In this document: positions 4,231 to 62,032 of the stretch, piece by piece
Numbering within the stretch: position 1 is the first letter of the stretch
How the letters are laid out: the number at the start of each line of letters is the position of its first letter
Assembly: GCA_030431455.1 (NCBI GenBank)
Contig: JAUIJE010000002.1
Span: forward strand, 65,294-129,293
DNA length: 64,000 nt
Direction: 5' to 3'
Origin: a bacterium
GTDB lineage: Bacteria > Myxococcota > UBA727 > JAUIJE01
Program-made: the position numbers and the translations under genes
The notes under the pieces: generated by a model
Told to the model about the DNA's origin: nothing
The model's input: the letters and a program-made list of their open reading frames with translations, nothing else
Databases searched by the model: none

Positions 4231-4273
4231 TGGATCCTCCCGCACGCGGATGTGTGGGCCTTTGTAACGCCGT

Positions 4274-12589: not shown

Positions 12590-12597
12590 CGGCGTCG

Positions 12598-13116: not shown

Positions 13117-13241
13117 CGCGTCCTCCTCGCGTGATTCGTGAACGCCCCTTCGCCTACCGCCGATGGTCGACAAATACACGGGGGGCTCGGGTTTTTTGTC
13201 CCCGGTTGGCGCCGTGCTTCTGATCCGGTAGCCCTGACGCC

Positions 13242-36878: not shown

Positions 36879-36906
36879 GCGGCGGGCGCCGCGAGGAGAG
36901 AACAAA

Positions 36907-41778: not shown

Positions 41779-44073
41779 CTAGCGTCGCCGACGACGCGCG
41801 GCGAAGGCCAGACCGAACAGGCCGAGCCCCGCCCACGCCGCGTCGGCCGGGGTCTGGCTGTCGCAGGTGCAGCCCCAAGGCCCATCCTGGCCGGGCCCGG
41901 CATCCTGACCCCCGGGTACCCGGCCTCCATCGAGCCTGGTCCCCGCGTCCCCGGAGCGCCCCGCGTCGATGACGGGCGCCGCGTCGGGCATCGCCGCGTC
42001 GGGGGTGTTCGCCGCCGCGTCGGGGGTGCTCGCCGCCGCGTCAGGGGTGTGGGCCGCCGCGTCGGGGGTGTGGGCCGCCGCGTCGGGCACGGCCGCATCG
42101 GACGCGCCTCCGTCGATGACGACCACACCCGCGTCGACCCCGGCGTCTGGGGGCTCGGGCATGGGCTCCACCGCCCGGTTGGGTCCCGCCTCGGACGTCG
42201 CGCCATCGCTGTTCACGGTCAGCGCGGTCACGGGCATCCCCAATGCCACTGGTGTGTTGAGGGCCGTGGGCATGGGCAGCACACAATCAAACTGCCCGGC
42301 CAAGACCGGGCACGCCCCGAGATGGTCCCCGGGCTCTCCGTGCGGGACCGCGGCCCCGCCGGGCGTGGTGGCGCCGGCGTTGTCCCCGTCGTCGTTGGCC
42401 ACGTGCACGCGCACCTCCGTGACCCCCGGGGAGCCCACCGTACCCACCACCCACAGGTCCCCGTCGTCGGTGAGCGCAGCCAGAGTCAAGACCGGCATGT
42501 CCACGGGCGCGCCTTGGCCGTCGTTGGGCGTGACCCCCGGGCCCGCGAGATCGACGCCGAGCCCGGCGCTGTCTGCGCTCACGCTGCGATCCCAGGCCAC
42601 GACGTCGGCCGCCCCCTGCGCACGCACCGCCGCGCCCCCGTTCTGGGTGAACCAAGACCGCCGCACGGTGCTCAACGTGCCCGGCCCCCCGATGAACACC
42701 CCGTCGCCGGCCGCGCCGGTGAGGGTGCTGTCCTCGATGAGCAACCCCCCACCGCCCCCGCCGAACGCGTCGAGGTACACCCCGCTGAACCCGCTGTCCC
42801 GCACCACGGAGCGCACGATCTCGTCGCCGGTGGTGCCGGACAAAAACACCGCGGGGGGGCCACTCGCGGCCACGCCCTCGACCACACACTCCTCGAGCCG
42901 GACCTGGCCCCCCATCATCTCGACCGCGCCGCCCGACACCGCAATGAGACTGCGCTTGATCGTGAAGCCGGTCTCGCCGAAGGCGTTGAACGCGCCGAGC
43001 GGATAGAGCGCCCCGAGGCCCGGCGGCACCGGCGCGCCCAGTTCGTCAACCCCGATGAACATGTCCTCGACCACCGCGTCATCCCGCTGGGCCACCACCC
43101 CCGCCCCCTGCAGTCCCATGGCGCGCACGCTGCCCGCGGGGGCGGCGAGGCTGAGCGGAAATTCTAAGGTCGCCCACAACATCGGCACGGCCAGAGGCGC
43201 GACCTCGAGTTCGTCCCCGGACTGCGCGATGCCGTCGGGCCCGACCCCCACCGGGCCCACCGGGTAGCTGGCCCCGGTCCAGACCCGCTGCGCGCCGAGG
43301 GGACAGGTGATGCCGTTGCACCACGCGCGTCCGTCGACGGGCACGGTCAGCGACGGCAGGGGGCTCAGCGGCGTCACCCGGAACACCTCACCTCCAGGAT
43401 CATTGGGCGGCACCGCGGGCACAAAACGCACCGCGTCGGCCACCCCGACTTCAGCATTTTGCAGCGCCTGGCGGAACGAGCCCTGGACGGTCTGGGCGCC
43501 GGGGGGCACGTCGTCGCCGTCGCGCGGATGGGTCACGACCCCGGCGGCAAACCCGAACACCAAGGCCTCGGGACCCGCTCCGCTGGCTTCTGCCACGTGT
43601 TCGGCCACGCCCACGTTCTGGAGTTGTACATCGGACCCTCCGCCGGTGCGGCCGCCGAAGCAGGGGCCTGGCGCCCCCCGCTGCAGGGTGCCTCCACTCC
43701 CGTCGGCACAGAACGCCCCGCGGCCGCCGTAGGTTTGTTCGGCCCACGCGGGAGCGGGCAGCACCGTGAAGCTGTTGACGGCAAACCACCAGGTCCCGTC
43801 GACCACGGTGAACACGGCCGTCCCGGTCGCATCGGTGGTGGCGAAGGCGAGGGGCAAATCGTCGATGCCCGTCGGTACGCCGTCGAGGAGGTCTTGGTAC
43901 GCGATGACCTCGACGCCCTCGAGGGGCACCCCATCGGCGATGTCCCCGTCGCCGTTGGGATCGAGCAGCACCGTCACGGTCACGTCGAGGGCGGCCGCCC
44001 CGGGGGCCCAAAGGCACGTCAACAGCCCGAGGGCGCGCAGGGAATGGGTGGGCCATGGGTGGCGTGTCGTCAT
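41779..44073 (-). CDS. secreted right-handed beta-helix protein with MYXO-CTERM sorting tail
   Basis: Signal peptide; DVTVTVLLDPNGDGD (Cna-B-like); beta-helix region with SFRQALQNAE motif. The C-terminus GCTCDSQTPADAAWAGLGLFGLAFAARRRRR is Cys plus TM plus Arg tail. Confidence 0.75.
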   Translation of the reverse strand: MTTRHPWPTHSLRALGLLTCLWAPGAAALDVTVTVLLDPNGDGDIADGVPLEGVEVIAYQDLLDGVPTGIDDLPLAFATTDATGTAVFTVVDGTWWFAVNSFTVLPAPAWAEQTYGGRGAFCADGSGGTLQRGAPGPCFGGRTGGGSDVQLQNVGVAEHVAEASGAGPEALVFGFAAGVVTHPRDGDDVPPGAQTVQGSFRQALQNAEVGVADAVRFVPAVPPNDPGGEVFRVTPLSPLPSLTVPVDGRAWCNGITCPLGAQRVWTGASYPVGPVGVGPDGIAQSGDELEVAPLAVPMLWATLEFPLSLAAPAGSVRAMGLQGAGVVAQRDDAVVEDMFIGVDELGAPVPPGLGALYPLGAFNAFGETGFTIKRSLIAVSGGAVEMMGGQVRLEECVVEGVAASGPPAVFLSGTTGDEIVRSVVRDSGFSGVYLDAFGGGGGGLLIEDSTLTGAAGDGVFIGGPGTLSTVRRSWFTQNGGAAVRAQGAADVVAWDRSVSADSAGLGVDLAGPGVTPNDGQGAPVDMPVLTLAALTDDGDLWVVGTVGSPGVTEVRVHVANDDGDNAGATTPGGAAVPHGEPGDHLGACPVLAGQFDCVLPMPTALNTPVALGMPVTALTVNSDGATSEAGPNRAVEPMPEPPDAGVDAGVVVIDGGASDAAVPDAAAHTPDAAAHTPDAAASTPDAAANTPDAAMPDAAPVIDAGRSGDAGTRLDGGRVPGGQDAGPGQDGPWGCTCDSQTPADAAWAGLGLFGLAFAARRRRR

Positions 44074-44241: not shown

Positions 44242-46431
44242 CTAGCGGCGGCGTCGCCGACGACGCGCGGCGAAGGCCAGACCGAACAGGCCGAGCCCCG
44301 CCCCCGCCGCGTCGGCCGGGGTCTGGCTGTCGCACGTGCAGCCCCCCCCGTCGCCGTCGCCGTCGCCGGCATCCGCGCCCGGCCCCGCGTCGGCCGCGAC
44401 CGGCCCCGCGTCTTGTCCGGCATCGGGCACGACCACGGCCGCGTCGGGCGCCCCCGCGTCGATGCCCGCGTCGATGCCCGCGTCGATGCCCGCGTCGATG
44501 CCCGCGTCGGGCGGCATCGGGACCGGCTCGACCGCGCGGTTGGGGCCCGCCTCCGAGGTGCGCCCGTCGGGGGCGTGGGCGAGCGCGGTGAGCGGCACAT
44601 CCAATGCCACTTGGCCGTCGAGGGCCGCGGGCACCGCGATCACACAATCGAACGCGCCTTGGTCGTCGACGGGGCATTCGCCCAACCGGTCGCCGGGCTC
44701 GCCGTGCGGGCCCGTGGTCGCCCCCGGGAACGCGACCCCGTCGTTGTCCCCGTCGTCGCGGGCGAGGTGCACACTCACCACGTCGAGGCCCACCGTCCAC
44801 GCGGTCCCGGGCAGCCCGACCGCGCCGCGCATCCACAGGTCACCCTCGTCGGTGAGCGCGGCCAAGGTCAGCACCGGCATGTCGATGGGCCCTTCCGCCC
44901 CGTCGTTGGGGGTGACCCCGGGTGAATCCAGGTCGGGGCTCGGCCCCACGTTGTCGTGGCTGACGTTGTGCGTGTAGGTCACGTCGCTCGCCGCCACCGA
45001 CGCGCGCAGGCCCGGACCGGCGTTGTTCGCCAACCACGACCGCTGCACCGCGTGCGCGCCCGCGGGCCCGAGGTAGACGCCCTCGCCCTGCGCGGCCTGC
45101 ACGGTGCTGTCCTCGACGGAAAGGCCGATGCTCGTGCCGAGCCCGTCGAGGTAGATGCCCGCGCCGGCGGTGTCGTGCACGAAGGTGCGCACGACCTGGT
45201 CTTGGCCCCGGTCCCCGGACAGGAAGATCGCCGGCGGCCCGCCCGCGGCCGGGCTCTTGATTTCGCAGTCTTCGACGAGAATCGATCCCCCGGCCATCTC
45301 CACCGCGCCGCCCTCGACCCCCACGAGGCTGTGTCGGAGCACCGCCCCGGTGACCGCGGCCGTGCTCGAGACCCCAATGGGGAACAGCGGGCCGGGACCG
45401 GGCGCCACCGGCGCGCCGTCCCCATCGACCCCCATGAACACATCCTCGACCACCGCGTCGTCGCGCTGGAGCACGATGCCGGCGCCGTTGATGCCGATGC
45501 CCCGCACTTCGCCCGCGGGCGCGGCCACCGACAAGGGGTACTCGGTGTTGATCCACAAGCCCGGCACCGCGAACGGTTCCACCACCGCCTCGTCCCCGGA
45601 GTCGGCGATGCCGTCGGCCCCGACCCCCACCGGGCCCCCGCCGAGGGTCGCGGCCGGGCGCGGGGCGCCCAGGTCGCCGACAATGCCGTTGTATAGAGGC
45701 CGGCCATCGAACGGCACCGTCACCGGGGGCAGCGCGTTGGGGGCCAACACGGTGTACACGTCTTCGCCTTGGCTGCCTGTGGCCGCGGGCGCGTCCGCGG
45801 GCACAAACCGCACGCTCTGTACCGCGCCGGCTTCGGCGTTTTGCAGGGCCTGGCGCAACGAGCCCTGGACGGTGCGCAGGGTCGCGGCGTCGTCATCCCC
45901 GTCGCGGGTGTTGGTCACCACCGCGGCGGAAAAGCCAAACACCAACGTGACTGTGCCCGGCCCCGCGACCTCCGCGATGTGCTCGGCGAGCGCGGGGTTG
46001 GGCGCCAGCGCGTCCGAAGCGCCCGCGGAGCGCCCGCCAAAACAAGGACCGTCGTCGGCCCGTTGCATGGTCCCGCCGACCCCGTCGGCGCAGAACGCCC
46101 CCGTGCTGCCGTACACCTGCTCGAGCCAGACCGGCGCCGCGGACAGGCTCGCGCTCGCGACCGTGATCCAAAAGGTCGAGTCCGCGAGGCTGAACGTCGC
46201 CTGGCCGCCGCTGTTGGTGTTCTTGGCGTCGGACAGCACATCGGTCACGCCGGGGATGCCGTCCCCGTTGTCCAAATACGCGAGCACCTGCGCGCCCTGG
46301 TCGGGGGCCGCGTCCGACAGGTCACCGTCCCCGTTGGGGTCGATCATCACCGTCACCGTCACGTCGAGGGCGGCCGCCCCCGACGAGAAAAGACCCACCA
46401 CCGCCGCCACCCACACCGCTGCTCCGCGCAT
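44242..46431 (-). CDS. secreted right-handed beta-helix protein with MYXO-CTERM tail (tandem paralog)
   Basis: Real start at ATG 46431 (MRGAAVWVAAVVGLFSSGAAALDVTVTVMIDPNGDGD). It ends ...GCTCDSQTPADAAGAGLGLFGLAFAARRRRRRR. The listed 1552-aa ORF 44242..48900 is this gene fused in-frame to antisense of PBP1A. Confidence 0.75.
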   Translation of the reverse strand: MRGAAVWVAAVVGLFSSGAAALDVTVTVMIDPNGDGDLSDAAPDQGAQVLAYLDNGDGIPGVTDVLSDAKNTNSGGQATFSLADSTFWITVASASLSAAPVWLEQVYGSTGAFCADGVGGTMQRADDGPCFGGRSAGASDALAPNPALAEHIAEVAGPGTVTLVFGFSAAVVTNTRDGDDDAATLRTVQGSLRQALQNAEAGAVQSVRFVPADAPAATGSQGEDVYTVLAPNALPPVTVPFDGRPLYNGIVGDLGAPRPAATLGGGPVGVGADGIADSGDEAVVEPFAVPGLWINTEYPLSVAAPAGEVRGIGINGAGIVLQRDDAVVEDVFMGVDGDGAPVAPGPGPLFPIGVSSTAAVTGAVLRHSLVGVEGGAVEMAGGSILVEDCEIKSPAAGGPPAIFLSGDRGQDQVVRTFVHDTAGAGIYLDGLGTSIGLSVEDSTVQAAQGEGVYLGPAGAHAVQRSWLANNAGPGLRASVAASDVTYTHNVSHDNVGPSPDLDSPGVTPNDGAEGPIDMPVLTLAALTDEGDLWMRGAVGLPGTAWTVGLDVVSVHLARDDGDNDGVAFPGATTGPHGEPGDRLGECPVDDQGAFDCVIAVPAALDGQVALDVPLTALAHAPDGRTSEAGPNRAVEPVPMPPDAGIDAGIDAGIDAGIDAGAPDAAVVVPDAGQDAGPVAADAGPGADAGDGDGDGGGCTCDSQTPADAAGAGLGLFGLAFAARRRRRRR

Positions 46432-50249: not shown

Positions 50250-50508
50250 TTTTCCACCCTCCGATTTTGTCAGTGCCATTGCGCCAGGGGCGCGGTTGCC
50301 ATGAGCACAATCCACGCACCGTGCCAGGTGACTCTGCCCGCCTGGCATCGCGATCTGCGGCCTCGGCACCGCGACAGACGCGCCCGCCGGGGGACACGGA
50401 TGTCGCGATCGGCGCCGCCCCCAGGGCCCGCGACCGGCTCGCCCCGGGCCTTTCCGGCTTTGACCCGCCTGGCGCACGCATTGCACTGTAGAGCCGCGGG
50501 AGGTGTTC

Positions 50509-51732
50509 ATGTCCAATCGCCGGCGCATCGAGATCAAAGACCACGGCTTCTACCCGGCCTATGTCGTCTGGGAGCTGACCCTCAAGTGTGACCACCTCTG
50601 CCACCACTGTGGCTCCCGCGCGGGCCGGGCCCGGGACGAAGAGCTCGACCTCGAGCAGGCCCTCTCGGTGGTGGACCAAATGGCGGCCATGGGCACCCGC
50701 GAGGTCGTGCTCATCGGCGGCGAAGCCTACCTCTACGAGCACCACCTCGCGGTCATCCGCGCCCTGCGCGCCCACGACATCAACGTGTGCATCACCACCG
50801 GCGGCCGCGGCATCACCCGTGAGCGTGCACAAGCATTGGCGGAGGCCGGCGTACGCCTGGTGTCCGTGTCCATCGACGGCCTCGAGGCCGAACACAACCA
50901 AATCCGCAACAGCCAGGGCAGCTTCCAATCCACCATGCGCGCCCTCGACAACCTGCGCGCGGCCGGCATCAAGACCGGCTCCAACATCAACATCAACCGC
51001 ATCAACCAACACTGCCTCGAGGACCTCTACGAACACCTCAAGGGCAAGGGCATCGACGTCTGGCAGGTACAGATCACCTCCGCCCTCGGCCGGGCCGCGG
51101 ACCGCCCCGAAATGTTGCTGCAACCCTACGACTTGCTCACGGTCATGCCCCGCATCGCCGCCCTCAAGGAGCGCGCGATCCGAGACGGCATCTCCATGAT
51201 GCCGGGCAACAACCTCGGCTACTTCGGGCCCGAAGAGAAGCTTTTGCGTTCGCTCAAAAAAGACCACCAAGACCACTGGGCCGGCTGCCAGGCGGGACGC
51301 TTCGTGATGGGCATCGAGTCCGACGGGGGGGTCAAGGGCTGCCCGTCCCTGCAGTCAGACAGTTACATTGGGGGGCACGTGACCGAACGCCCCTTGCGCG
51401 AGATCTGGGACCAGACCGAGCGGCTCGCCTTCGCCCGGTCCCGCACCCGTGAAGACCTCTGGGGGCACTGCGCGGAGTGTGTGTTCGCCGATACCTGCCT
51501 CGGGGGGTGTTCGTTCACCGCCCACGCGTTGTTCGGGCGGCCGGGCAACAATCCGTATTGCCACTTCCGCGCCCAGCAGTTCGACAAGCGCGGCCTGCGC
51601 GAACGCCTGGTGCGCACCGAGGCCGCGCCCGGGCTGCCCTTCGACCACGCCAAGTTCGAGATCGTCGTCGAGGAAGTGCCCGCCACCGACCGCGAAGCCT
51701 CCGCGCCCCGCCGCCTCAAGGTCGTCGCCTAG
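50509..51732 (+). CDS. radical SAM / SPASM-domain enzyme (peptide-modifying or anSME-like maturase)
   Basis: CDHLCHHC (CxxxCxxC) radical-SAM cluster; C-terminal SPASM Cys pattern GCQAGRF...GGVKGCPSL...GHCAECVFADTCLGGCSF...YCHF. GGGAGG RBS 6 nt before the ATG. Confidence 0.85.
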   Translation: MSNRRRIEIKDHGFYPAYVVWELTLKCDHLCHHCGSRAGRARDEELDLEQALSVVDQMAAMGTREVVLIGGEAYLYEHHLAVIRALRAHDINVCITTGGRGITRERAQALAEAGVRLVSVSIDGLEAEHNQIRNSQGSFQSTMRALDNLRAAGIKTGSNININRINQHCLEDLYEHLKGKGIDVWQVQITSALGRAADRPEMLLQPYDLLTVMPRIAALKERAIRDGISMMPGNNLGYFGPEEKLLRSLKKDHQDHWAGCQAGRFVMGIESDGGVKGCPSLQSDSYIGGHVTERPLREIWDQTERLAFARSRTREDLWGHCAECVFADTCLGGCSFTAHALFGRPGNNPYCHFRAQQFDKRGLRERLVRTEAAPGLPFDHAKFEIVVEEVPATDREASAPRRLKVVA

Positions 51733-51796: not shown

Positions 51797-53158
51797 TTAG
51801 ATCACGCCGGGCAGACGAGCGCCGAGGCCGCCTTTGAGCTTGGGCGCTTTGCCACCCTCGGCGCGCGAGCTGAACACCAGCTCGATGGCTTTGCCCGCGA
51901 CGTTTTCGTTGTCGCGCGGGGTGACCACCAAGGGGTCGCCCTCTTGCACGTTGCCGAGGTTGAGGTTGAGGGTGCGGTCGTCGGGGATGGTGGCGGTGAA
52001 GGTCTCGCCCGAGCGGGTGTTGAGCACCGTGACCGTGGCCCGCGGCTCCATCGCCCCGAAGCCGGACAGGCTCACCGAACGTTTGAAGTTGCGCACCAGC
52101 GCCAGGTCGTTGCGGCTGATGATGCCGTCCTCGGCCGAGTTGTTGACCTGCTCGAACGCGGCGAAGCGCTCCTTGTCCGAGGTGAGCTCCTTGAGCGCGT
52201 TGCGGGTGGTCTCCGACAGCGTCTCGTCTTTGCTCGCCTTGACCAGGTCGTCGAGGTTGAGGTTGGCGTTGTTGTCCTTGCCCGCGGCCTTGGCGATGTT
52301 GCCGTATTGGCCGTAGAGCACGTTGGCGACCGCGGAGTCGTTCTCGTCGAAGCGACAATCCTCGACGAGGCTGAGCTTGTCCTCGAGGATCTGCGGCGGA
52401 CGGGTGTCGTTGACCGCTTTGATGATGAGATTCTTGCGGGCGGCCTCGCCGTCGAGGGCGTTGAGCTGGCCGCCGCGGGTGGCGACGTTGCGGTTGTCGA
52501 CCCGCTCGGTGACCATGCCGTTGGCCCAGTCGTCGGGCTCGAACTCGCCGGTGACGGGCATCGAGGGGTTGCCCGAGTGGTCGACCTGGCGGAGCTGGAA
52601 CACGTCGCCCGGCTCGATGCCGAACTTCTTCATCTGGTCCGCGTTGAGGTACACCGCGCCTTCGCGGCGCTCGACGTTGCGGCCGGTGAGGGTCAGCTCG
52701 GTGACGTCGTTTTTGCGCTCAAAGTTGGCGCTGGGGTCTTTGGAGAGGTTGATCAGCTGCAGGGTGCTGCCGAGCTCGACGTTGCGCAGCTCGAGGTACA
52801 CCGGATCGCGGCCCGCGGGGCGGATGGTGGTGGTGCGGTTGGGGCGGAAGGTGGCGCCCTCGGCCGCCCGGTCGAACGCGCGGGCGTTGACGATCTGCGG
52901 GGTGGGCGCGGGCTCCATGTCCGACTTGTCGTGGCGGGAGCACGCGTTGAGGAAGTTGACGATGGCCTGTTTGGCGTCGCCGTCGAGCTTGGGCCCGAGC
53001 TGGGTCACGATGCCCTCGAGGTCTTTGCGCTCGTTTTTGGACAGGCGGTTGCCGTCGCGGGCCGCGTCGAGGAGCTGTTGCGCGTCCTGTTGGCTGATGT
53101 TGCCGTCTTGGATGGCTTGGGTGTACGCGGAACGAATCTTCGAGTCGCGGATTTGCAT
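51797..53158 (-). CDS. hypothetical cytoplasmic protein (N/K/D-rich, EF-hand-like tandem DGNxS motifs at N-terminus)
   Basis: 453 aa, GC3-biased, GGAG RBS, no signal peptide. It sits 180 bp downstream of large module gene 2 and is convergent with the rSAM gene. Confidence 0.5.
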   Translation of the reverse strand: MQIRDSKIRSAYTQAIQDGNISQQDAQQLLDAARDGNRLSKNERKDLEGIVTQLGPKLDGDAKQAIVNFLNACSRHDKSDMEPAPTPQIVNARAFDRAAEGATFRPNRTTTIRPAGRDPVYLELRNVELGSTLQLINLSKDPSANFERKNDVTELTLTGRNVERREGAVYLNADQMKKFGIEPGDVFQLRQVDHSGNPSMPVTGEFEPDDWANGMVTERVDNRNVATRGGQLNALDGEAARKNLIIKAVNDTRPPQILEDKLSLVEDCRFDENDSAVANVLYGQYGNIAKAAGKDNNANLNLDDLVKASKDETLSETTRNALKELTSDKERFAAFEQVNNSAEDGIISRNDLALVRNFKRSVSLSGFGAMEPRATVTVLNTRSGETFTATIPDDRTLNLNLGNVQEGDPLVVTPRDNENVAGKAIELVFSSRAEGGKAPKLKGGLGARLPGVI

Positions 53159-53337: not shown

Positions 53338-55710
53338 TCAGGGGAGCAGCTGCACGGTGGTGGCGGGCAGGGCGCGGGTGTACAGGCGCACCTCGTCGAT
53401 GGTGCCGGGGAACCAGTACCCGCCTTCGTAGGTGCCGAGGGTCATCGGCTCGCTGCCCGCGATGGAGCCGAAGGTGGGCGGGATGAGCGCGAGATCGACC
53501 AACGCGGCGTCGACATACCCCCGGGCTTCGCCGGCCGCGCGATCGAACACCAATGACAAACAATGGGGGGCGCCAGCGAGGGCGTCGGTCCCGAAATCGA
53601 CCACCACCACGGTTTCGTTCACGTCGACGATGTTGGCGTACCAAGACCCCGCGCCCGCGTTGAACAACACCCCCGCTTGGTCGGGGGTGCCGCCGCCGAG
53701 GGAAAAGGGGTTTTCGTTGACGTCGCTGGGGGGCGCCTGGTTGACGCAGGCAAACACGGTGAACGATTCGGCCCCGAGCAGGTCGGAGGTCACGCTGGGA
53801 ACGGTCACATAGGTGTTGGGGCCCGTGACAATGCCATTGCCCAACACGCCGGGGGCCTGGCCGGGGTTGCCCACCAGGACCCCGTCGTGGCCCGCGCCGG
53901 TGTGGTCGGTGACGCCGCCCACCGTCGACTCGAAGCTGTAGTACAGGAGCAGGTCGTCGGGGGGCCCTTGGTGTTCGATGGCGCCGCTGTCGCAGGCCGC
54001 GCCCACCGGGCGGGGGCGCCCGAAGATGTCCGTGGCCGGACACGGGCCGACCGCGCGGTCGATGGCCAATGATGACAAGCGCTGGCCCCAGGGCAAGCCA
54101 AAGCCAAAGGGCTCGTCGGCAAACGGGGACACCGCGGTCGGGGACACGACGTCGCTGGGGCCGGTGCAGATGGGGTCTGGCCCGACGAACACATTCTGGC
54201 CTTGGGAGGTCACGGTGCCGCCCCCGCCGATGAGGCACAGGGCGCTGGCGCTGCCTTGATCAAACACATTGGCGCGAATGTTGACGCTCGGCCCCAAAAA
54301 CAGGTGAAGGCCCACCGGGGTGTTGTTGATGAAGGTGCTGAACGCCACCGTGTTGGTGCTGTTGCCGCAGAACAACACCGCGCCTTCGGTGCCCGGCGAG
54401 GTGTTGTCGACGAACAAGCTCCCGGTGATGGTCAGGCTGACCGGGTCGCAGTTCTGGTCGATGGCGGCGCCCCCCGACGTGGCGGTGTTGCCCTCGAACA
54501 CGCTGGCTTCGATGGTGCTCGAGAACGCGCCCCCGATGAACGCCACCGCGCCACCGAAATCGGTGGCCTGGTTGGACTCGAACCGCGCGCCCACGATCGT
54601 GGTGGGCGTGTCCCGCAGGGCGAGCGCGCCCCCCTTGGTGCCGCCTTGGGCGGCGTTGCCGCTGAACCACGCGTCGCGCACCGTGAGGTCCGAGAGCTCG
54701 GCGCTGATCGCCCCCCCGCCGTCGCTGTCGACGTCGCCCGGCGCGTCCTGCGCGACGTTGTTCACAAACTGGCAGTCGTCGACCACCAACGTCGTGTTCA
54801 GGGCCCGGACCGCGCCCCCCCCGTCGGCGTCGCTGGTCACGCCGTTGCTGAACGCGAGGTGGCGCAGCTCGACGGTGGTGTCCTCGAACCGAAAAAACCG
54901 CTCCAACGACGCAAACGACGTGTGCGCGGCCAAGCCGCCCTCGATGATCATCGCGTCGACATCGCCCATCACCACCTGGGCCAACAGGGTCACCGACGGC
55001 ACCCCCAGCCGCACAAACCAGGGCCCGTTGGGCGCGGCTTGGGCCTCGGCCAACGCCGCCCGCAGCGTGCAGGTGCCGGCCCCGGTGGCACACACCCCGT
55101 CGCCCGGGGTCAGGTCCACCTCGTCGCCGCCGTCGTCGACAAGCAGGTAGGCGTGGTCCGCCTCAACACAAACCGCGTGGGCCTCGGCCGCGGGCACGCC
55201 GCCCGGGGTGCCGCCCAACCCGCACCACACCGCGTCACAGCGCACCGGCTCGAGGAGGCCGCACGCCGGGTCCGGCGCGCCGCAGCCACAATCGCACACC
55301 GCGTCGCCGTGCCGCGCCGGGTCGCAGAACCAATCGCCCGGCACCCCGCCATCGGGCCCGACCACACCCGCATCTCCCGCGTCGCTGACCCCGGCGTCCG
55401 CATCGCCGTCGCCATCGCCATCCCCGTCGCCATCCCCGTCCCCGTCGCCGTCGCCATCCCCGTCCCCGTCGCCATCGCCGTCCCCATCGCCATCCCCGTC
55501 CCCATCCCCGTCCCCATCTCCATCCCCGTCCCCATCGCCGTCCCCGTCCCCGTCGCCGTCGCCGTCGCCCGCTTGGCACACCCCGTCGAGGCACCGGTCG
55601 CCACCGGGACAGTTGGCGTCGCCGTCGCACGGCAGCGGCGTGAGCCCCCAGGTCAAACACCCGGTGCTCGCCACCCCCCAACACAAAAGCCACGCCCCCC
55701 GCCAGGTCAT
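53338..55710 (-). CDS. large lipoprotein: Cys knot, (GD)n linker, right-handed beta-helix, C-terminal LamG-like domain, module copy 2
   Basis: Start at ATG 55710 (MTWRGAWLLCWGVASTGC...CDGDANCPGGDRCLDGVCQAGDGDGD...). CTLRAALAEAQ motif; beta-helix repeats; the C-terminal ...GYWFPGTIDEVRLYTRAL has the LamG pattern. The start overlaps the small partner's stop (ATGA). Confidence 0.75.
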   Translation of the reverse strand: MTWRGAWLLCWGVASTGCLTWGLTPLPCDGDANCPGGDRCLDGVCQAGDGDGDGDGDGDGDGDGDGDGDGDGDGDGDGDGDGDGDGDGDGDGDGDGDGDGDGDADAGVSDAGDAGVVGPDGGVPGDWFCDPARHGDAVCDCGCGAPDPACGLLEPVRCDAVWCGLGGTPGGVPAAEAHAVCVEADHAYLLVDDGGDEVDLTPGDGVCATGAGTCTLRAALAEAQAAPNGPWFVRLGVPSVTLLAQVVMGDVDAMIIEGGLAAHTSFASLERFFRFEDTTVELRHLAFSNGVTSDADGGGAVRALNTTLVVDDCQFVNNVAQDAPGDVDSDGGGAISAELSDLTVRDAWFSGNAAQGGTKGGALALRDTPTTIVGARFESNQATDFGGAVAFIGGAFSSTIEASVFEGNTATSGGAAIDQNCDPVSLTITGSLFVDNTSPGTEGAVLFCGNSTNTVAFSTFINNTPVGLHLFLGPSVNIRANVFDQGSASALCLIGGGGTVTSQGQNVFVGPDPICTGPSDVVSPTAVSPFADEPFGFGLPWGQRLSSLAIDRAVGPCPATDIFGRPRPVGAACDSGAIEHQGPPDDLLLYYSFESTVGGVTDHTGAGHDGVLVGNPGQAPGVLGNGIVTGPNTYVTVPSVTSDLLGAESFTVFACVNQAPPSDVNENPFSLGGGTPDQAGVLFNAGAGSWYANIVDVNETVVVVDFGTDALAGAPHCLSLVFDRAAGEARGYVDAALVDLALIPPTFGSIAGSEPMTLGTYEGGYWFPGTIDEVRLYTRALPATTVQLLP

Positions 55711-56435
55711 TCGACAAGCCCCCACACCAACAGGCCCGCGCCGGCGGCGAGGGACACGACGACGACCACCGGCCCGGCCACGGTGTTGGCCCGGCCCCAC
55801 AGCACCAAACCCGCGCGAACGTCCCCCGGGCTCGACGGGGTGGACAACAGCTGCTCGACGAGCAGGGCTTGGCCGAGCACCGCGGTCGCGGCGAGCGCGC
55901 CGAGCACCAACGCGCCGCCCCCCGCCCACAACATCCACGGCACGCCGCCGGCCGGGGTTTTGGCCGGGGCCACCGGGTCGGGGGGGTGGGCCGCGCCGGT
56001 GGTGAACTTGACCTCGTCGCGCACGAGCTCGAAGAAAGACAGAATCTTCGGCGGGGTGTCCGGCGGCAGTTGGTGGTCGGGCTCGCGCTGCAACACGTGC
56101 AGGAAGTTGAGGCGGGCCTGGACGTCATGGCCGATGACGACGTTGGCCATGCCCGCGTAGAGGTTGGCTTCAAAACGTTGCGCCTTGGTGGCGCCTTTGT
56201 CGCTGGCGGCGATCATCAACTCGTCCGCGGCGGTCTGGTACTCGAGGTTCTCCAGGGCCGCCTTGCCCCGCTCGATGTGGCGGTCGACGTCGTCCGGCGA
56301 GGACAGCGGGGCCAACCAGAGGATGCACACGGCGGTGAGCACAGGGTCGTGACTATCGCAAAACCGCCCCGCCGCCGTCGAGCGACCGCGCGCATACAAA
56401 GTGCGACATCGGGCGCGGCCGGGCCGGGCCGGCAT
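55707..56435 (-). CDS. small TPR-like membrane-anchored protein, module copy 2
   Basis: ...CDSHDPVLTAVCILWLAPLSS signal-like region, then NLEYQTAADELM...RFEANLYAGMANVVIGHDVQARLNFLHVLQREP...PPKILSFFELVRDEV, a Pro linker and a TM hairpin. The start is uncertain (ATG 56435 or GTG 56342). Confidence 0.6.
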   Translation of the reverse strand: MPARPGRARCRTLYARGRSTAAGRFCDSHDPVLTAVCILWLAPLSSPDDVDRHIERGKAALENLEYQTAADELMIAASDKGATKAQRFEANLYAGMANVVIGHDVQARLNFLHVLQREPDHQLPPDTPPKILSFFELVRDEVKFTTGAAHPPDPVAPAKTPAGGVPWMLWAGGGALVLGALAATAVLGQALLVEQLLSTPSSPGDVRAGLVLWGRANTVAGPVVVVVSLAAGAGLLVWGLVE

Positions 56436-57189
56436 GACAAACCCCGGCGCGCGGTGCGAACATGACCGGGTGTCGCTGCTCGTGTTGTTGCCCTGGATCG
56501 CCCTCGCGACGTTCGACGCCGACGCGGCGCTGCAGCGGGCCGACGCCCACGTGCAGAACCTCGACTACGAGCTCGCGCGCGAAGAGCTGCTGGAGCTGCT
56601 CGAGCACAACGACGAGCTGACCCCGGCCCAGCGCCGCGACGCCCACATGATGGCCGGGACCGTGGCCCGCATCCTCAACCGCGACACCGAGTCGCGCATG
56701 CACTACGCGGCCGCGCTCGAGGCGGACCCGGAAGCGTCGCTGCCCCCGGGGCAGCCGCCCAAAATCACGACCTTTTTTGACCTGGTCAAACAAGAGCGCG
56801 CGGCCCGGGCGCCCTTGCCCGCGCCCGCGCCCGAGGTGGCCCCGCCCCCCGCGCCGCCGCCGGCGGCGCCGGCCTCGACCCCCCACCTGCTCTACCTCGG
56901 GGCGGTGGCCGGCGGGGTCGCGGCCGCCGGGTTGGGCGCGGCGGTGCTCGGCGTCGGGCTTTTGCCCCTCGCCCAGTACGGCCTGGCCAAGACCGCCCTC
57001 GACGACAAAGTCTCGCAACGGGACGCGTCGGGGGTGCGCGACCTCTACACCCAACAGGACAACGCCGCGTCGAGCTTCGAGACCTGGGGCCTGCCCCTGG
57101 TGGTGGTGGGGGCGGCCACGGTGGGGCTCGGCGTGGTCGTCGGCGGCAGCGCCGGCGGTCTGTGGCTGGTCGACGGAATGGGAGAATGA
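56434..57189 (+). CDS. small TPR-like membrane-anchored protein, module copy 3
   Basis: MTNPGARCEHDRVSLLVLLPWIALATF, then NLDYELAREELLELLEH...RRDAHMMAGTVARILNRDTESRMHYAAALEADP...PPKITTFFDLVKQE, a Pro linker and a TM hairpin. Its ATG overlaps the ATG of the divergent copy-2 gene by 2 bp. Confidence 0.6.
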   Translation: MTNPGARCEHDRVSLLVLLPWIALATFDADAALQRADAHVQNLDYELAREELLELLEHNDELTPAQRRDAHMMAGTVARILNRDTESRMHYAAALEADPEASLPPGQPPKITTFFDLVKQERAARAPLPAPAPEVAPPPAPPPAAPASTPHLLYLGAVAGGVAAAGLGAAVLGVGLLPLAQYGLAKTALDDKVSQRDASGVRDLYTQQDNAASSFETWGLPLVVVGAATVGLGVVVGGSAGGLWLVDGMGE

Positions 57190-59459
57190 TGCTGCATGCA
57201 CGCGTGGTGATGCTGGGGGCGCTGCTGTGCGGCGCCGGGTGCACGCTGCCCCGCACCGAGCTCGGCAAGCCGTGTGCGGTCGACGGCGACTGCGCCGCGG
57301 GGTTTGTGTGTGTGGATGGGTTGTGTCTCGGCGACAACTTCGACGAGGTCGGCGACGGCGATGGAGACGGAGACGGAGATGGGGACGGGGACGGAGATGA
57401 CGCCGGGTCTTCTGGCGACGGAGACGGAGATGGGGACGGGGACGGCGACGACGGGGGCATGGTCGAGCCCGCGGACGGGGGCGTGACCGATGCCGCTTCG
57501 TCGGGCGACAGCGGTGTGACCGATGCCGCCGACGGGGGCGCCCAGGTCGGGCCCGACGGCGGAGCTGCCGACGCGGGGTCTTCAGGCGACGGGGATGGCG
57601 ATGGCGACGGCGATGGCGATGGCGACGGCGACGGCGATGTGACGTTTGTCGTCGACACCACCGTGGACGATTGGGACATGGATCCCGGCGACAGCGCGTG
57701 CGTGAGCTGGTCGGGGGGCTGTACGCTCCGCGCCGCGATCGAAGAAATCGGCGCGCTCGGCGGCGGGGGCACGGTGGTGGTGCAGGTCAACGCGCCCATC
57801 GAGCTCACCCAGCTCCTCGGCGTCCACCAGGACGTGACCGTGCACGGCAACGGGCTGTCTCTTTTGCCCGCGGGGGCGGACCTGCACCGGGCGTTCTACG
57901 TCGACTTCGGGGCGACCCTGACCATGGACAACGTGGCCATGCGCGGGTTCGCCACCGAGCTCGACAACCCCACCGGGGGGGCCATGGCCATCAACGGCAC
58001 CGTGCTCGGGCAGCGGTTGGTGTTCGAGGACAACCTGGCCGAGGCGTCGCCCGGCAGCGCGTCGGGGGGCGCGGTGGTGATCTGGTCCGGGGCCACCTTT
58101 GACTGCACGGGGTGCATCTTTCGGTACAATCGCATTGTGGGGCCGGGCAGCGGGGGGGCCATCGCCGCGGTGGATGGGTCGAGCCTGCGCCTGGTGGACA
58201 CCACCTTCGACAGCAACAGCGCGGACGTATACGGCGGGGCGATCTACCTGCAAGGGGGCGACACCACCCTCGACCGGTTGACGTTTGTTGACAATGTCGC
58301 TGGAGAAGGGGCCGCGTTTGGTCTGGACTGTTTTACCCCTGGCGACCATTTGGTCACCACCAGCCTGTTCGTGCGCAATGTCGCCACCAGCCCGTCCAGC
58401 GGGGCGGGGGTGGTGCACGGCTGCTCCGGGTCGGTGATCGAGTTCGCCCAGGCGACGTTTTTCCGCAACCAGCCGAGCCTGGTGGGCGGCGACCCCGCGG
58501 TGACGTTCACCGCGTCGATCCTCGACGAGACCACCACCGGGGGCATCTGCCACACGTTTATGCCCCTGGTGTTTTCCGGGGACTACAACGTGTCCGCGAT
58601 CGCCGACCCCAACTGCAGCCTCACCGGGGCCAACGACGAGGGCTCGGTGCCCACCGGGGCCTTGATCCCGGTGTGGGACTCGACGGACACCGCGTCGTGG
58701 CCGAGCCGGTCGTCCCGGGCCTGGGACAAAGTGCCGTTTGTGTTTTGCCCCCCCACCGATCGGTTTGGCCGGGCCCCGACGCCGGGGGGCGCGTGTCCCG
58801 CGGGCGCGGTGTTTGGCCCGACCGGGCTCGATGGGTTGATCAGCGGCTACTGGTCGTTCGACGACGGGCAGGGCACGGTCGCGGCCAACTACGCGAGCGC
58901 CACCAGCGCGGCCCTCGACTTTTCGTTCACCACCCCCGGGGTCTGGGTCAAGGCGCCGTTCGGGGGCCGGGCCTTCGACGTGTCGGGCACCACCGCGTCG
59001 GTGCCCATCTCGCTGCCCTGGGGCACCACCAGCACCTACAGCTTCTCCATCTGCGTGGCCCCCGATGTCGACAACAACACCGACCTCGCCATCGTCGCCC
59101 GGCTCTCGGACATCGTGACCCCCTCGGAGCTGGTGGTCGAGGTCGGCGCGATGGCCAACAAGATTTACGTGTCCAATGGGCCGGAGCTCTTGCTGCACAA
59201 CCTCGGGGACCCCAACCGCACCGAGTGTGTGGCCCTCGTCGTCGACCACCCCAACGACACAATGCGTGTGTACCGGGACGGCGCGTTGTGGGCCACCGAC
59301 TCAGCCCCCACCACCGTGTCCTTTGGCTCTTCGGTGTTGACCCTCAACCCCTCTCCCGAGTTCAGCAACTACGCCGGCCTCGTCGACGAGATGTTGGTGA
59401 TCAACCGCGCGATGTCGGTGGACGAGATCGGCTACCTGCACTCGCGCTTCGCCCCCTGA
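57186..59459 (+). CDS. large lipoprotein: Cys knot, (GD)n linker, right-handed beta-helix, C-terminal LamG-like domain, module copy 3
   Basis: Start at ATG 57186 (MMLHARVVMLGALLCGAGC lipobox ... CAVDGDCAAGFVCVDGLCLG, then GD repeats). GGCTLRAAIEE motif; beta-helix; the C-terminal ...RVYRDGALWATD...GLVDEMLVINRAMSVDEI has the LamG pattern. ATGA overlap with the small partner. Confidence 0.75.
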   Translation: MMLHARVVMLGALLCGAGCTLPRTELGKPCAVDGDCAAGFVCVDGLCLGDNFDEVGDGDGDGDGDGDGDGDDAGSSGDGDGDGDGDGDDGGMVEPADGGVTDAASSGDSGVTDAADGGAQVGPDGGAADAGSSGDGDGDGDGDGDGDGDGDVTFVVDTTVDDWDMDPGDSACVSWSGGCTLRAAIEEIGALGGGGTVVVQVNAPIELTQLLGVHQDVTVHGNGLSLLPAGADLHRAFYVDFGATLTMDNVAMRGFATELDNPTGGAMAINGTVLGQRLVFEDNLAEASPGSASGGAVVIWSGATFDCTGCIFRYNRIVGPGSGGAIAAVDGSSLRLVDTTFDSNSADVYGGAIYLQGGDTTLDRLTFVDNVAGEGAAFGLDCFTPGDHLVTTSLFVRNVATSPSSGAGVVHGCSGSVIEFAQATFFRNQPSLVGGDPAVTFTASILDETTTGGICHTFMPLVFSGDYNVSAIADPNCSLTGANDEGSVPTGALIPVWDSTDTASWPSRSSRAWDKVPFVFCPPTDRFGRAPTPGGACPAGAVFGPTGLDGLISGYWSFDDGQGTVAANYASATSAALDFSFTTPGVWVKAPFGGRAFDVSGTTASVPISLPWGTTSTYSFSICVAPDVDNNTDLAIVARLSDIVTPSELVVEVGAMANKIYVSNGPELLLHNLGDPNRTECVALVVDHPNDTMRVYRDGALWATDSAPTTVSFGSSVLTLNPSPEFSNYAGLVDEMLVINRAMSVDEIGYLHSRFAP

Positions 59460-59582
59460 GCCCCGGTCAAGAAATTCGCCGGGGTGATTTTCTCGGCCAA
59501 AAACTTTCGTCGCACCCCCTTCGCCCTCATTCTGTGACCCGTGGCGCCAACCGCCGCCACTTGTCACCCGGGAGGGCATGGA

Positions 59583-60512
59583 ATGGTCAGCGCAACCGCC
59601 GAAGAACGCCGCAAATCTGAGACCAAACAAACCGGCTGGCAGCCGGGCGAGGTCGAACCTTTGGACGTGGGCCAACCCTACGAACCCGTGCCCCCGCCCA
59701 AGGTCCACCAGCACCAGCGCAGCGGCATCATCCCCATCGGCAACCAGCTCTACCAAGGCGACACCGTCGAGACCTTGCAGAGCTTCGCCGACGACACCTT
59801 CGACTGCGCCATCACCGACCCGCCCTACAACATCGCCAAGAAGGGCAAGAAGGGCCTGGCCTGGGCCTTCTCCTCCCACGTGACCATGGACGAACAGTGG
59901 GACGCGTACTCCACCGACGAATACGAAAAGTTCACCGCGGCGTGGCTGTCCGAACTGTGCCGGGTGGTCAAAGAGAACGGCAACATCTTCATCTTCGGCA
60001 GCTACCACAACATCTACACCATCGGGGCCATCGCCACCCGCATGGACCTGCGTATTGTGAATAGCATCATCTGGGCCAAGCCGAACGCCCAGCCCAACAT
60101 CACCTGCCGGATGTTCACCGAGAGCACCGAACAGGTCATCTGGATCTGCAACAACACCAACAAGAAGGCCAAGAAATGGACGTACAACTACCAGCACATG
60201 AAAGAGCTGAATGGTGGCAAGCAGATGCGCAACTTCTGGGAGATTCCCGTCACGCCGAAGCGTGAGCGCGTGCACGGCAAACACCCGTCGCAAAAGCCCT
60301 TGCGGGTGATGGAGCGCTTGGTGCTCGCGGGCACCAACCCCGGGGACCGGGTGGTGGACTGCTTCGCGGGGTCCGGCTCGACCCTGCTCGCCTGTGACCG
60401 GCTCGACCGGCGCTGGGTCGGCATCGAACGCGACGAAGCCTACTGTGACATCGCCCACCGCCGCCTCGACGACGAACGCCGCCAGCGCCGGCTGCTCAAG
60501 ACCAACACCTGA
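59583..60512 (+). CDS. beta-class N6-adenine DNA methyltransferase, CcrM/M.HinfI family
   Basis: Start at ATG 59583, with GGGAGGG 6 nt upstream. Motif IV DPPYN comes before motif I DCFAGSGST. Strong collinear similarity to CcrM (WDAYSTDEYEKFTAAWL, GSYHNIY, HPSQKP, VGIERDEAY). No restriction-enzyme-like gene is adjacent. Confidence 0.85.
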   Translation: MVSATAEERRKSETKQTGWQPGEVEPLDVGQPYEPVPPPKVHQHQRSGIIPIGNQLYQGDTVETLQSFADDTFDCAITDPPYNIAKKGKKGLAWAFSSHVTMDEQWDAYSTDEYEKFTAAWLSELCRVVKENGNIFIFGSYHNIYTIGAIATRMDLRIVNSIIWAKPNAQPNITCRMFTESTEQVIWICNNTNKKAKKWTYNYQHMKELNGGKQMRNFWEIPVTPKRERVHGKHPSQKPLRVMERLVLAGTNPGDRVVDCFAGSGSTLLACDRLDRRWVGIERDEAYCDIAHRRLDDERRQRRLLKTNT

Positions 60513-60524
60513 CGGAGGCGCGCG

Positions 60525-61292
60525 ATGGGTTCGCCCCGTCCAGCCCACATCGCGGCCTGCGTGCTCCTGGCCTTCGCCACCCCCGCGGGGGCCCAGAGCG
60601 TGCTCTCCGACGACGACCTGCAGTTCCGCACCGACCAGGAGCTGGTCCGGCCCTACGAGGACAAGGTCCAGGCCACCCGGCGCCGGGACATCCAAGCCGG
60701 CATCATCACCGTGGGCTCCGGCGCGCTGGTGGCCGGCACCGCCGCCATCGTGGGCGCGGTGTGGGCCGGCCTCGACGCCGAACAAGGCCCGGTGAGCGAA
60801 GTCCAACTGCTCGGCGGGGGGGCGGTGATCCTCGCCGCCGGGGTCGCGGTGCTCGCGGTCCCGATCATCGACATTGTGCTGTCGCTGTCCCAAGGCAACA
60901 ACACCATTCTTCCCTACAGCTACATTGAGCCCAGCCTGTCCGGGGTGGACGGCGACGACCTCGCCGAGGACGCGGCCCGCGAAGAGGAAGTGCGCTGGCT
61001 GCTCGCGGCCTTGTGCGGCGCCACCGCCATCACCGCCTGGGTCACCGCCGCGGGGGTGGGCGCGGTGTCGGCCCTGCCCCGGGTGTTCAACGCCCCCGGC
61101 TCCACCGTGGCCTTGACCGGCATCGATCGCATCTTGCTCGGGGCCAGCGCGGTGCTGTTCGGGGCCGGCGTGACCGCGGCGGGGGTGGGCGTGTACCTGC
61201 CCTTCTCGCGCGGCAACCGCGAGATCGAACGCGACCTGCGCGACGCGGGCCCACCAGCGGCCCCCGAAGACGGGGCCGAGCCCACCGAATAA
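60525..61292 (+). CDS. secreted/membrane protein, Gly/Ala-rich TM helices (hypothetical)
   Basis: Signal peptide AACVLLAFATPAGAQS; 3-4 hydrophobic helices; GC3-biased. Confidence 0.5.
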   Translation: MGSPRPAHIAACVLLAFATPAGAQSVLSDDDLQFRTDQELVRPYEDKVQATRRRDIQAGIITVGSGALVAGTAAIVGAVWAGLDAEQGPVSEVQLLGGGAVILAAGVAVLAVPIIDIVLSLSQGNNTILPYSYIEPSLSGVDGDDLAEDAAREEEVRWLLAALCGATAITAWVTAAGVGAVSALPRVFNAPGSTVALTGIDRILLGASAVLFGAGVTAAGVGVYLPFSRGNREIERDLRDAGPPAAPEDGAEPTE

Positions 61293-61312
61293 GGTGCTAA
61301 CGTGCGTCCGCC

Positions 61313-62032
61313 ATGACCGCGCCGCTGTTCCTGCTCTGTCTCGCCGTCGGCCAAGCCCCCGCGAGCCAACCCGCGCCCGCGAGCCAACCCGCGTCGATGC
61401 CGGCGTCGATGCCCGCGTCGATGCCCGCGTCGCAACCCGCGATGACCGAGGCGCCGTTGCTCGACCCCGACGACGGGGTGTTCTCCCCCGCCGAACAGCG
61501 CGCCTACACCCGCGAGGCCTTCGCGGTGCAGGCCCGCGCGATCTGGGCCGGGACCGCCATCGTCGGCGGCGGGGTGCTCGCCACCGGCACGTTGCTCGCG
61601 GCCTTGGCCGGGGCCCAGCCCGCCCTGTGGATCGCTGCAGGGGCATTGTGGGCGGGGGCCGGGCTCTCCTTTGTCGCCGCCGGGGTCATGGCCGTGTCCT
61701 ACCAGGTGGTGATGAACGACCTGGCCCTCGGGCCCGCCCTCGAGCTGCGCGCCTGGCCGGCCAGCGACCTCGACCGGGACACGCTGGCCACCTTTCGCTC
61801 TGTCGCCCGGTGGTCGCGCTACGCGGCCGCGGCCGGGCTCGTGGGCGGCGGGGTCACGGTGGCGAGCGCGCTGGCCGGGGTCCAGCTGTTGATGCCCAGC
61901 CTCGACCTCAACCTGCGCGCGGCCTCGGCGGTGGGCACCGGGGCGGCGCTGTCCGCGGCCGGCTTCGGGGTGCTGCTCGCGATCTCACCCACCCCGTATG
62001 AAGTCGAAGCGGTGATCCGCCTCGGCGAGTAG
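61313..62032 (+). CDS. secreted/membrane protein with (ASxP) repeats, Gly/Ala-rich TM helices (hypothetical)
   Basis: MTAPLFLLCLAVGQAPASQPAPASQPASMPASMPAS...; similar architecture to the previous gene. Confidence 0.5.
   Translation: MTAPLFLLCLAVGQAPASQPAPASQPASMPASMPASMPASQPAMTEAPLLDPDDGVFSPAEQRAYTREAFAVQARAIWAGTAIVGGGVLATGTLLAALAGAQPALWIAAGALWAGAGLSFVAAGVMAVSYQVVMNDLALGPALELRAWPASDLDRDTLATFRSVARWSRYAAAAGLVGGGVTVASALAGVQLLMPSLDLNLRAASAVGTGAALSAAGFGVLLAISPTPYEVEAVIRLGE

Follow-up and report, generated by a model that had tools for sequence, protein, structure and literature searches.

A conserved two-gene cassette of Myxococcota encoding a small TPR-like membrane protein and a lipoprotein with a four-cysteine knot

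In the Slam loci of Neisseria, Moraxella, and Pasteurella (type 11 secretion system [T11SS]), a membrane protein bearing a periplasmic tetratricopeptide repeat (TPR) domain is encoded beside a lipobox-containing substrate; the substrates are diverse, and 185 of 353 Slam homologs (52%) adjoin a lipoprotein gene (PMC5449769). In the myxobacterial SitBAI system (Myxococcus), the gene for a modular lipoprotein has an accessory gene directly upstream (PMC8546572). PilF/PilW and ActH are short TPR modules that bind one envelope partner and escort or activate it. Here we analyzed a 64,000-nucleotide stretch of a Myxococcota genome (GenBank assembly GCA_030431455.1, contig JAUIJE010000002.1, forward-strand positions 65,294 to 129,293; 70% GC), referred to below as the window, in which a small gene (c1, c2, or c3) adjoins the gene of a large lipoprotein (L1, L2, or L3) at three places. 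The pair is a conserved, mostly translationally coupled two-gene cassette of Myxococcota, made up of a small TPR-like membrane protein and a lipoprotein in which a lipobox, a four-cysteine (4-Cys) knot, and an acidic spacer precede a variable passenger. The first-pass annotation of the window knew of no described system with this pairing, and it is indeed undescribed in the libraries that we searched (Pfam, NCBIfam, and PADLOC).

Three gene pairs and a family of small proteins

Open reading frames (ORFs) were confirmed for all three small genes and for the large lipoprotein genes beside them, as were, by domain scans, the lipoproteins. In copy 2, c2 (55707-56342) and L2 (53338-55710) lie on the minus strand; in copy 3, c3 (56434-57189) and L3 (57186-59459) lie on the plus strand. 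Copy 1, also on the minus strand, has the reverse order, with L1 (7095-9425) 5′ of c1 (6390-7073), which follows after a 21-nt gap. The TPR-like domain is encoded at 6735-7016 in c1, 56010-56303 in c2, and 56509-56799 in c3. The large proteins, which the first-pass annotation called giant, are 757 to 790 amino acids (aa) long.

The small and large genes of copies 2 and 3 are joined by exact ATGA stop/start overlaps, as had been noted before. The c3/L3 junction (57186-57189) reads ...GGA GAA TGA TG... (GAATGATG at 57184-57191), with a Shine-Dalgarno-like GGGAGA sequence ahead of the L3 start. The c2/L2 junction (55710-55707) reads ...GTC GAA TGA CC... (GAATGACC on the minus strand at 55712-55705), so that the L2 ATG (55710-55708) overlaps the c2 stop codon.

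Copies 2 and 3 had been described as head to head with overlapping ATG start codons that left no room for conventional promoters. The CATG at 56433-56436 does hold one ATG on each strand. The longest c2 ORF reaches ATG 56435, and only 22 of the 31 codons of this putative extension (71%) end in G or C (GC3), versus 196 of 211 (93%) in the gene body (P = 2e-4). The public gene call (P0004, 211 aa) starts at GTG 56342, which is the probable true start. Because of the low GC3 of the extension and this public call, we regard the overlapping ATGs as an artifact of taking the longest ORFs. For c3, whose ORF can be counted from 56401 or 56434, the start is ATG 56434, as in the public call (P0005), or GTG 56470; GC3 is 9/12 in the first 12 codons and 224/239 in the remainder (P = 0.035). 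For c1, it is TTG 7073 or ATG 7058, the latter being the public choice (P0155). Family members mostly start at, or slightly before, their hydrophobic segment. The c2/c3 spacer is unchanged in the contig of a near-identical strain (L017), which is hence uninformative on start codons. With c2 starting at its probable GTG 56342, the divergent spacer (56343-56433) measures 91 bp for a c3 start at ATG 56434 and up to 127 bp for one at GTG 56470. The claim that promoters lack room thus depended on starts that are unlikely to be the true ones: a spacer of this size suffices for divergent promoters, and both are presumably located there, with no sigma-70 consensus, Rfam family, or notable palindrome found in 56300-56520.

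The diverged small-protein family with a shared core, reported in the first-pass annotation, holds up. Products of c1, c2, and c3 share a 94-aa core at 34 to 52% identity, with c3 nearer to c1 (50 to 52%) than to c2 (34 to 36%), and a family hidden Markov model (HMM) matched exactly these three proteins in the window (c1, E = 1e-38). When 1.84 billion cluster representatives (50%-identity clusters) were searched exhaustively with a profile, 1,314 scored E ≤ 1e-3, of which 178 reached E ≤ 1e-10; most are 200 to 250 aa long. The typical member has a short N-terminal hydrophobic signal, a core of ~95 aa with near-invariant positions (L..Y..A, A..AG, and LP-x4-PK(I/V)-xx-FF-x-LV), a Pro/Ala linker (median, 36 aa; ~40% Pro plus Ala), and two hydrophobic segments; most members have at least two such segments after the domain. 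Some carry an inserted PEGA domain or two to four copies of the core. Two to four tandem ~95-aa cores occur in single relatives (L027, 1517-3646; P0023; P0110; and P0108, of 709 aa) with the C terminus still hydrophobic, and the P0108 gene follows a He_PIG/RCC1 lipoprotein gene after an 8-nt gap. A C-terminal Glu stands straight after the second transmembrane (TM) helix in 58 of 110 members, and 19 members end in Pro. In the window, the positions concerned are 6390-6392, 55710-55712, and 57184-57186; the codon is GAA in the overlapping pairs, where GA-ATG-A gives the partner its start. Because a clade that lacks a lipoprotein neighbor also keeps the terminal Glu, this residue seems to be a feature of the protein itself.

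The small protein falls outside every Pfam, NCBIfam, and PADLOC model. NCBIfam returned noise only, including a PilW match at 12.6 bits (cut-off, 154), and the Pfam TPR models stayed below their gathering thresholds (TPR_16, 23.7 versus 32.7 bits for c3; TPR_2, 19.5 versus 27 for c1; none for c2). The family profile had no match among PDB sequences. The parts of c1 follow, from the N terminus, as a signal peptide, TPR-like domain, Pro/Ala linker, and TM hairpin in its translation and its AlphaFold2 (AF2) model. That model, built on a 57-sequence alignment (mean predicted local distance difference test [pLDDT], 88.9), has five helices at residues 18 to 111, arranged as two TPR-like hairpins and a capping helix (pLDDT, ~98), then a disordered linker and a helical TM hairpin (147-221) with a short inter-helix loop. 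Foldseek searches of PDB with this model returned generic TPR folds only (probability, 1.0; E ≥ 0.06), PilF and ActH among them. Given a cleaved signal peptide, the model suggests that the TPR-like domain lies in the periplasm and that the inner membrane holds the C-terminal hairpin.

The predicted combination of a periplasmic helical domain and membrane segments had led the first-pass annotation to liken the small protein to anti-sigma or chaperone-usher accessory factors. Such a module, in which the small protein would relay a signal from a surface lipoprotein across the inner membrane or act as an usher-type accessory, is very unlikely. The modeled hairpin offers only its short inter-helix loop as a possible cytoplasmic part, and the pair proteins match no anti-sigma, sigma-70, PapD, or usher family. 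Scanned flanking genes likewise gave no anti-sigma, sigma, PapD, or usher family match; the sigma-70 gene at L002 lies ~5 kb off, at a locus where the family gene itself is degenerate. The small protein is also all-alpha in the model, unlike the Ig fold of a PapD-like chaperone.

Lipoproteins with a constant N terminus and variable passengers

Common to L1, L2, and L3 is an N-terminal module of lipobox, 4-Cys motif, and Gly-Asp dipeptide repeat, (GD)n. L1 has the lipobox FSPGC, a knot at 9279-9335, and (GD)n at 9102-9269; L2 has ASTGC, a knot at 55576-55629, and (GD)28 at 55402-55569; and L3 has CGAGC, a knot at 57273-57326, and (GD)n blocks within 57351-57638. Lipoboxes were assigned by pattern match only, as a signal peptide ending [LVI..][ASTG][GAS]C. 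The knot spans ~20 aa with the consensus C-x5-6-C-x5-6-C-x4-5-C and weakly resembles Pfam small disulfide modules, all below threshold (EB, 18.6 versus 24.3 bits; DUF7107, 17.8 versus 24.6; Dickkopf_N, 16.6 versus 25). The (GD)n region matches only the staphylococcal Ser-Asp repeat models in NCBIfam, at ~23 bits against cut-offs of 1,000 to 2,500.

Behind this module, the bodies differ. L2 is a right-handed beta-helix (Beta_helix above cut-off) with a C-terminal Laminin_G_3 domain (PF13385; 41.0 bits; cut-off, 27.6); CSLREA (13.5 versus 25) and PMP (14.4 versus 20.6) scores are below their cut-offs. L3 has an N-terminal CSLREA motif (CSLREA_Nterm, TIGR04214; 27.8 versus 25), a PMP-repeat beta-helix (POMP_repeat, TIGR01376, 23.4 versus 15; Chlam_PMP, PF02415, 24.6 versus 20.6), and a C-terminal Laminin_G_3 domain (30.4 bits). 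An AF2 model of L3 from a two-sequence alignment (pLDDT, 46) gave only periodic beta strands at residues ~90 to 280. The L1 body gave a weak NosD-like/beta-helix match, with no LamG, CSLREA, or PMP. Among the model families that the first-pass annotation had pointed to, beta-helix models match L2 and L3, no NCBIfam choice-of-anchor model reached E ≤ 0.1 for any of the three, and the TPR models remain subthreshold in the small protein.

Aligned without their low-complexity N termini, L2 and L3 prove to be genuine though distant paralogs, with 29% identity across 626 aa (E = 4e-23). Beyond the lipobox/Cys/GD part, L1 has no significant similarity to either. Since c3 is nearer to c1 than to c2 and L2 and L3 have diverged this far, copies 2 and 3 are not the simple inverted duplication of one unit that the first-pass annotation saw in them. 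Its statement that the same module occurs three times stands for the N-terminal lipobox, knot, and (GD)n and fails for copy 1 in gene order, in the body of L1, and in LamG. c1 and c3 are 50% identical while the L1 and L3 bodies are unrelated, a pattern which suggests that passengers may have been swapped while the N-terminal module stayed constant. The beta-helix/LamG body, earlier taken as the paired feature, varies; the constant part is the lipobox, the 4-Cys knot, and the acidic spacer.

The simple 4-Cys pattern matched exactly L1, L2, and L3 in the window. Further (GD)n lipoproteins are encoded at 13242-14042 (plus strand), 36817-37635 (plus), and 40111-41760 (minus), with neither a 4-Cys knot nor a small TPR gene; 36312-36878 encodes a paralog of the C-terminal domain of the 36817-37635 product (48% identity). 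The repeat, for which (GGCGAC)n codes, seems to serve as a linker throughout the genome, and its length could change by slippage. The small gene tracks with the 4-Cys knot and not with the GD linker.

Recurrence of the pair beyond the window

Loci outside the window came from one metagenome scan, one DNA-pattern scan of Genome Taxonomy Database (GTDB) genomes, twelve exact-protein look-ups, and our own ORF and translation analysis. In the DNA scans of genome contigs, an alignment-derived pattern gave 22 unconfirmed stretches, and a degenerate pattern gave three contigs of metagenome-assembled genomes, all belonging to the clade without a lipoprotein neighbor. A lipobox gene adjoins the family gene at 10 further loci, in 6 further sequence clusters; the 4-Cys knot is present at 8 of the 10, and an ATGA or GTGA overlap is present at 6.

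Downstream knot lipoproteins overlap the small gene by ATGA at L009, L010, L020, L023/L024, and L025 and by GTGA at L008. At L018/L019 the downstream lipoprotein starts with TTG and has a knot followed by GDGDGD. At L016, from an organism of 43% GC, the gap is ~80 to 90 nt and the knot is followed by more Cys repeats; at L021, a 2-nt spacer leads to a lipobox and (GE)n, of which only 22 mature residues are visible. L001 carries the ortholog of copy 1 with an L1-like gene upstream, whose product ends ...GAGPDVGCAEAP compared with ...GAGPDVGCCESP in L1, the C terminus being conserved. The external partner lipoboxes are ATSGC, AGSGC, WCAAC, MIAAC, LDGAC, VASGC, LTPGC, LAGSC, and LAGGC. Besides its downstream partner, L023 has a 582-aa knot lipoprotein upstream, whose passenger is C-type-lectin-like by eye, with no supporting Pfam match. 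The L025 partner combines DUF2341 and Laminin_G_3. At L025 (1643-2957), the knot ORF (1643-2323) and the DUF2341 plus LamG_3 ORF (called from 1989) overlap in different frames. The frameshift, in or after the acidic repeat, reflects an assembly error or a pseudogene, and the public call omits the lipoprotein N terminus.

These neighborhoods largely refute the idea that the pairing is a lineage-specific accident, in which an old operon duplication gave copies 2 and 3 and chance adjacency among many GD and beta-helix lipoproteins gave copy 1. That account has in its favor at least six (GD)n lipoproteins plus several beta-helix proteins within 64 kb, as well as the reversed gene order and unrelated large protein of copy 1. 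The pairing, though, recurs in unrelated samples, where the knot is the same and the 4-nt overlap mostly so. When the core is clustered at 50% identity, the paired loci fall into 8 clusters, one of them including the 43%-GC organism, and we give an accident very little credence.

In a six-frame search of ~217 kb (the window plus the collected loci), the combined lipobox and 4-Cys pattern, which missed L3 and the upstream L023 gene, matched small-gene neighbors together with a few internal Cys-rich or out-of-frame stretches. Since the pattern is confined almost entirely to small-gene neighbors, the association between the small gene and knot lipoproteins exceeds chance.

The main proposal of the first-pass annotation, a conserved and probably obligate pairing, is supported by these neighborhoods, in which the lipobox neighbor and the overlap recur. 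Pairing is not strict throughout the family: a further set of family genes, in 6 groups together with the knot-less loci, stands alone. A clade of eight syntenic loci (cluster 27; L005 to L007 and L011 to L015) has, at its longer loci, genes for a glutaredoxin-rhodanese protein and an MGMT-like DNA-binding protein, then the small gene, and then a gene for a cNMP-binding protein or citrate synthase. L022 lies unpaired between genes for an aldehyde dehydrogenase and an HGLS protein, and L004 is an unpaired PEGA variant beside an alginate-export-like barrel. At L002/L003 the family gene is unpaired and frameshifted or degenerate. On these two independent JGI contigs (L002, 9998-10852), it is split into ORFs of 101, 110, and 77 aa, is probably degenerate, and adjoins a type II secretion system ATPase (T2SSE) gene. 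L026 and L027 have upstream lipoproteins that lack the knot.

The unpaired loci bear most on the main rival to a specific partnership, namely co-expression with no specific complex. On this view, the small protein would serve the envelope in general, for instance as a periplasmic spacer or scaffold, with its gene often leading secreted-lipoprotein operons, and the knot would be a generic stabilizing cap for long disordered spacers. The eight-locus clade and L022 have housekeeping genes around them and no lipoprotein neighbor, but the domain, linker, TM hairpin, and terminal Glu are all retained. A mirror-tree comparison of the TPR domain with the knot, also in favor of this rival, gave a weak and nonsignificant correlation (Mantel r = 0.26; P = 0.087). 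Co-expression accounts poorly, however, for a lipobox and 4-Cys module found almost only beside family members, for a 4-nt overlap kept across clusters of only 23 to 50% identity, and for the other (GD)n lipoproteins of the window, which have no small gene. We consider it rather unlikely.

Around the cassettes, the window holds further envelope and other genes. Tandem paralogous beta-helix proteins encoded at 41779-44073 and ~44245-46431 (both minus strand) end in G-C-T-C-D...hydrophobic...RRRRR; the 41779-44073 product passes the MYXO-CTERM model (21.9 versus 20 bits), which makes a Myxococcota origin of the window likely. The two are surface proteins of the same neighborhood that follow another sorting route, a C-terminal one. 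Copy 1 lies within an apparent kynurenine/NAD pathway cluster (2866-4368, 9469-10980, 11534-12757, and 12598-13179, all minus strand), in which an FAD monooxygenase and kynureninase were identified and an amidohydrolase and 3-hydroxyanthranilate dioxygenase were assigned by sequence look alone. A homolog of the 4274-5770 gene also adjoins the c1 ortholog in L001. Just downstream of L3, at 59541-62029 (plus strand), comes an N6/N4 DNA methylase gene (PF01555; E = 7e-50) and, after it, two more genes on that strand that matched nothing in Pfam or NCBIfam, perhaps a restriction-modification module or a mobile one of another kind. Upstream of copies 2 and 3, a radical SAM/SPASM enzyme gene (50464-51729, plus strand) stands beside a gene for a 453-aa protein (51797-53158, minus strand).

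A proposed partnership and its relation to known systems

The N-terminal module is constant while passengers differ (c1 and c3 are alike, and the L1 and L3 bodies are unrelated), which fits a conserved handle with swappable cargo. The reading that we rate highest, at somewhat below an even chance, is that the N-terminal knot of the lipoprotein has a dedicated partner in the periplasm, namely the small protein, which serves as its escort or dock. On this model, the small protein would enter the envelope via its Sec signal peptide, with the 30- to 50-aa Pro/Ala-rich linker joining the TPR-like domain to the inner-membrane hairpin, and the partner lipoprotein would usually be made by translational coupling at the ATGA/GTGA overlap. 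The periplasmic TPR-like domain may then bind the knot beside the lipid anchor of its cognate lipoprotein. By doing so, the small protein might escort or dock the lipoprotein in maturation and sorting or position it in the envelope. The acidic spacer, whether (GD)n, (GE)n, or DAGD repeats, would hold the passenger away from the membrane, and the passenger would be a variable carbohydrate-binding or adhesin-type domain. Electrostatic binding of the acidic (GD)n by the TPR groove was also considered and was dropped on inspection of the sequences, as the TPR-like domains are themselves Asp/Glu rich.

Several points weigh against a dedicated partnership. Pairing is not universal: cluster 27 (eight loci), L022, L004, and L002/L003 have no lipoprotein neighbor, and the neighbors of L026 and L027 have no knot. 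The nonsignificant mirror-tree result described above counts here as well, and binding of the knot by the TPR-like domain is a step that we infer. The domain falls below the Pfam TPR cut-offs, its TPR-like character coming from the structural model, and the topology, signal peptide cleavage, and lipoprotein destination are predictions only. The sample is small and biased, its 27 loci being found via one motif or through top-scoring matches and many of them lying on short contigs.

To our knowledge, lipoprotein sorting, docking, and surface exposure are largely unknown in diderms outside the Proteobacteria and Bacteroidota. Myxobacteria encode hundreds of lipoproteins, and the cassette offers a concrete handle: a tag that is short and conserved (lipobox, 4-Cys knot, and acidic spacer) and, dedicated to it, a TPR-like protein in the membrane. 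Should that protein recognize the tag, a new lipoprotein-handling route would be defined, along with a sequence rule for predicting client lipoproteins in metagenomes and a tag small and portable enough to use in display or anchoring. Even if the two proteins do not interact, the small protein and the knot module are two unannotated families missed by current Pfam and NCBIfam models.

Among known systems, SitBAI is likewise myxobacterial, and a polymorphic lipoprotein effector cassette of this type, with the small gene encoding an accessory or immunity protein, would account for the constant N terminus, the variable C terminus, and the accessory gene directly upstream, as sitB is for sitA in Myxococcus (PMC8546572). 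We nevertheless find this highly improbable. SitBAI has an escort domain of ~375 aa, a C-terminal nuclease toxin, and a downstream immunity gene, none of which was seen in the window cassettes; their conserved N-terminal part is ~20 aa plus the spacer, and the passengers are beta-helix, LamG, or DUF2341 domains, not nucleases. No small immunity gene follows the lipoprotein, L2 and L3 being followed by the 453-aa gene of no assigned function and the DNA methylase gene, respectively, which lie on other strands or in another context, and PADLOC returned no defense-system match.

Other resemblances concern single parts of the cassette. The PilF/PilW and ActH matches reflect generic TPR similarity, and pilotins, unlike the small protein, are themselves lipoproteins and have no C-terminal TM hairpin. 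Taken alone, L2 and L3 look ordinary among CSLREA/PMP beta-helix and LamG surface proteins, L3 by all of these domains and L2 by its beta-helix and LamG, while L1, having no CSLREA, PMP, or LamG, has no such tie; L2 and L3 differ from them in that the domains are fused behind a lipobox, 4-Cys knot, and (GD)n spacer. The staphylococcal Sdr/Clf proteins likewise place a long acidic dipeptide repeat between anchor and ligand-binding domain. That match is compositional only, and the anchor is an N-terminal lipid in the cassette and a C-terminal LPXTG in Sdr/Clf.

The closest functional parallel is Slam/T11SS. The membrane part of Slam is a 14-stranded outer-membrane beta-barrel (DUF560), whereas the model gives the small protein two long hydrophobic alpha-helices, a hairpin that presumably spans the inner membrane; the two share no sequence homology and occur in Proteobacteria and Myxococcota, respectively. 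DUF560 had no Pfam match at E ≤ 0.1 in the window pair proteins, and because this defining barrel is missing, we do not assign the cassette to Slam/T11SS. The N-terminal periplasmic TPR domain of Slam has its counterpart in the modeled TPR-like domain, and the Slam-type adjacency to a lipobox gene is present in all 3 window copies and at the 10 external loci; the share of Slam homologs that adjoin a lipoprotein gene is similar to the fraction seen for the small genes here. More speculatively, and with less confidence than we place in the partnership itself, the small protein might be a TPR receptor that reads a disulfide-knot tag behind the lipid anchor and thereby routes, docks, or surface displays modular lipoproteins. 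The knot would then be a portable sorting or docking signal, in a previously undescribed Myxococcota system built from unrelated parts as a functional counterpart of Slam/T11SS. By this analogy, the cassette is best described not as a Slam/T11SS system but as one that may work like it.

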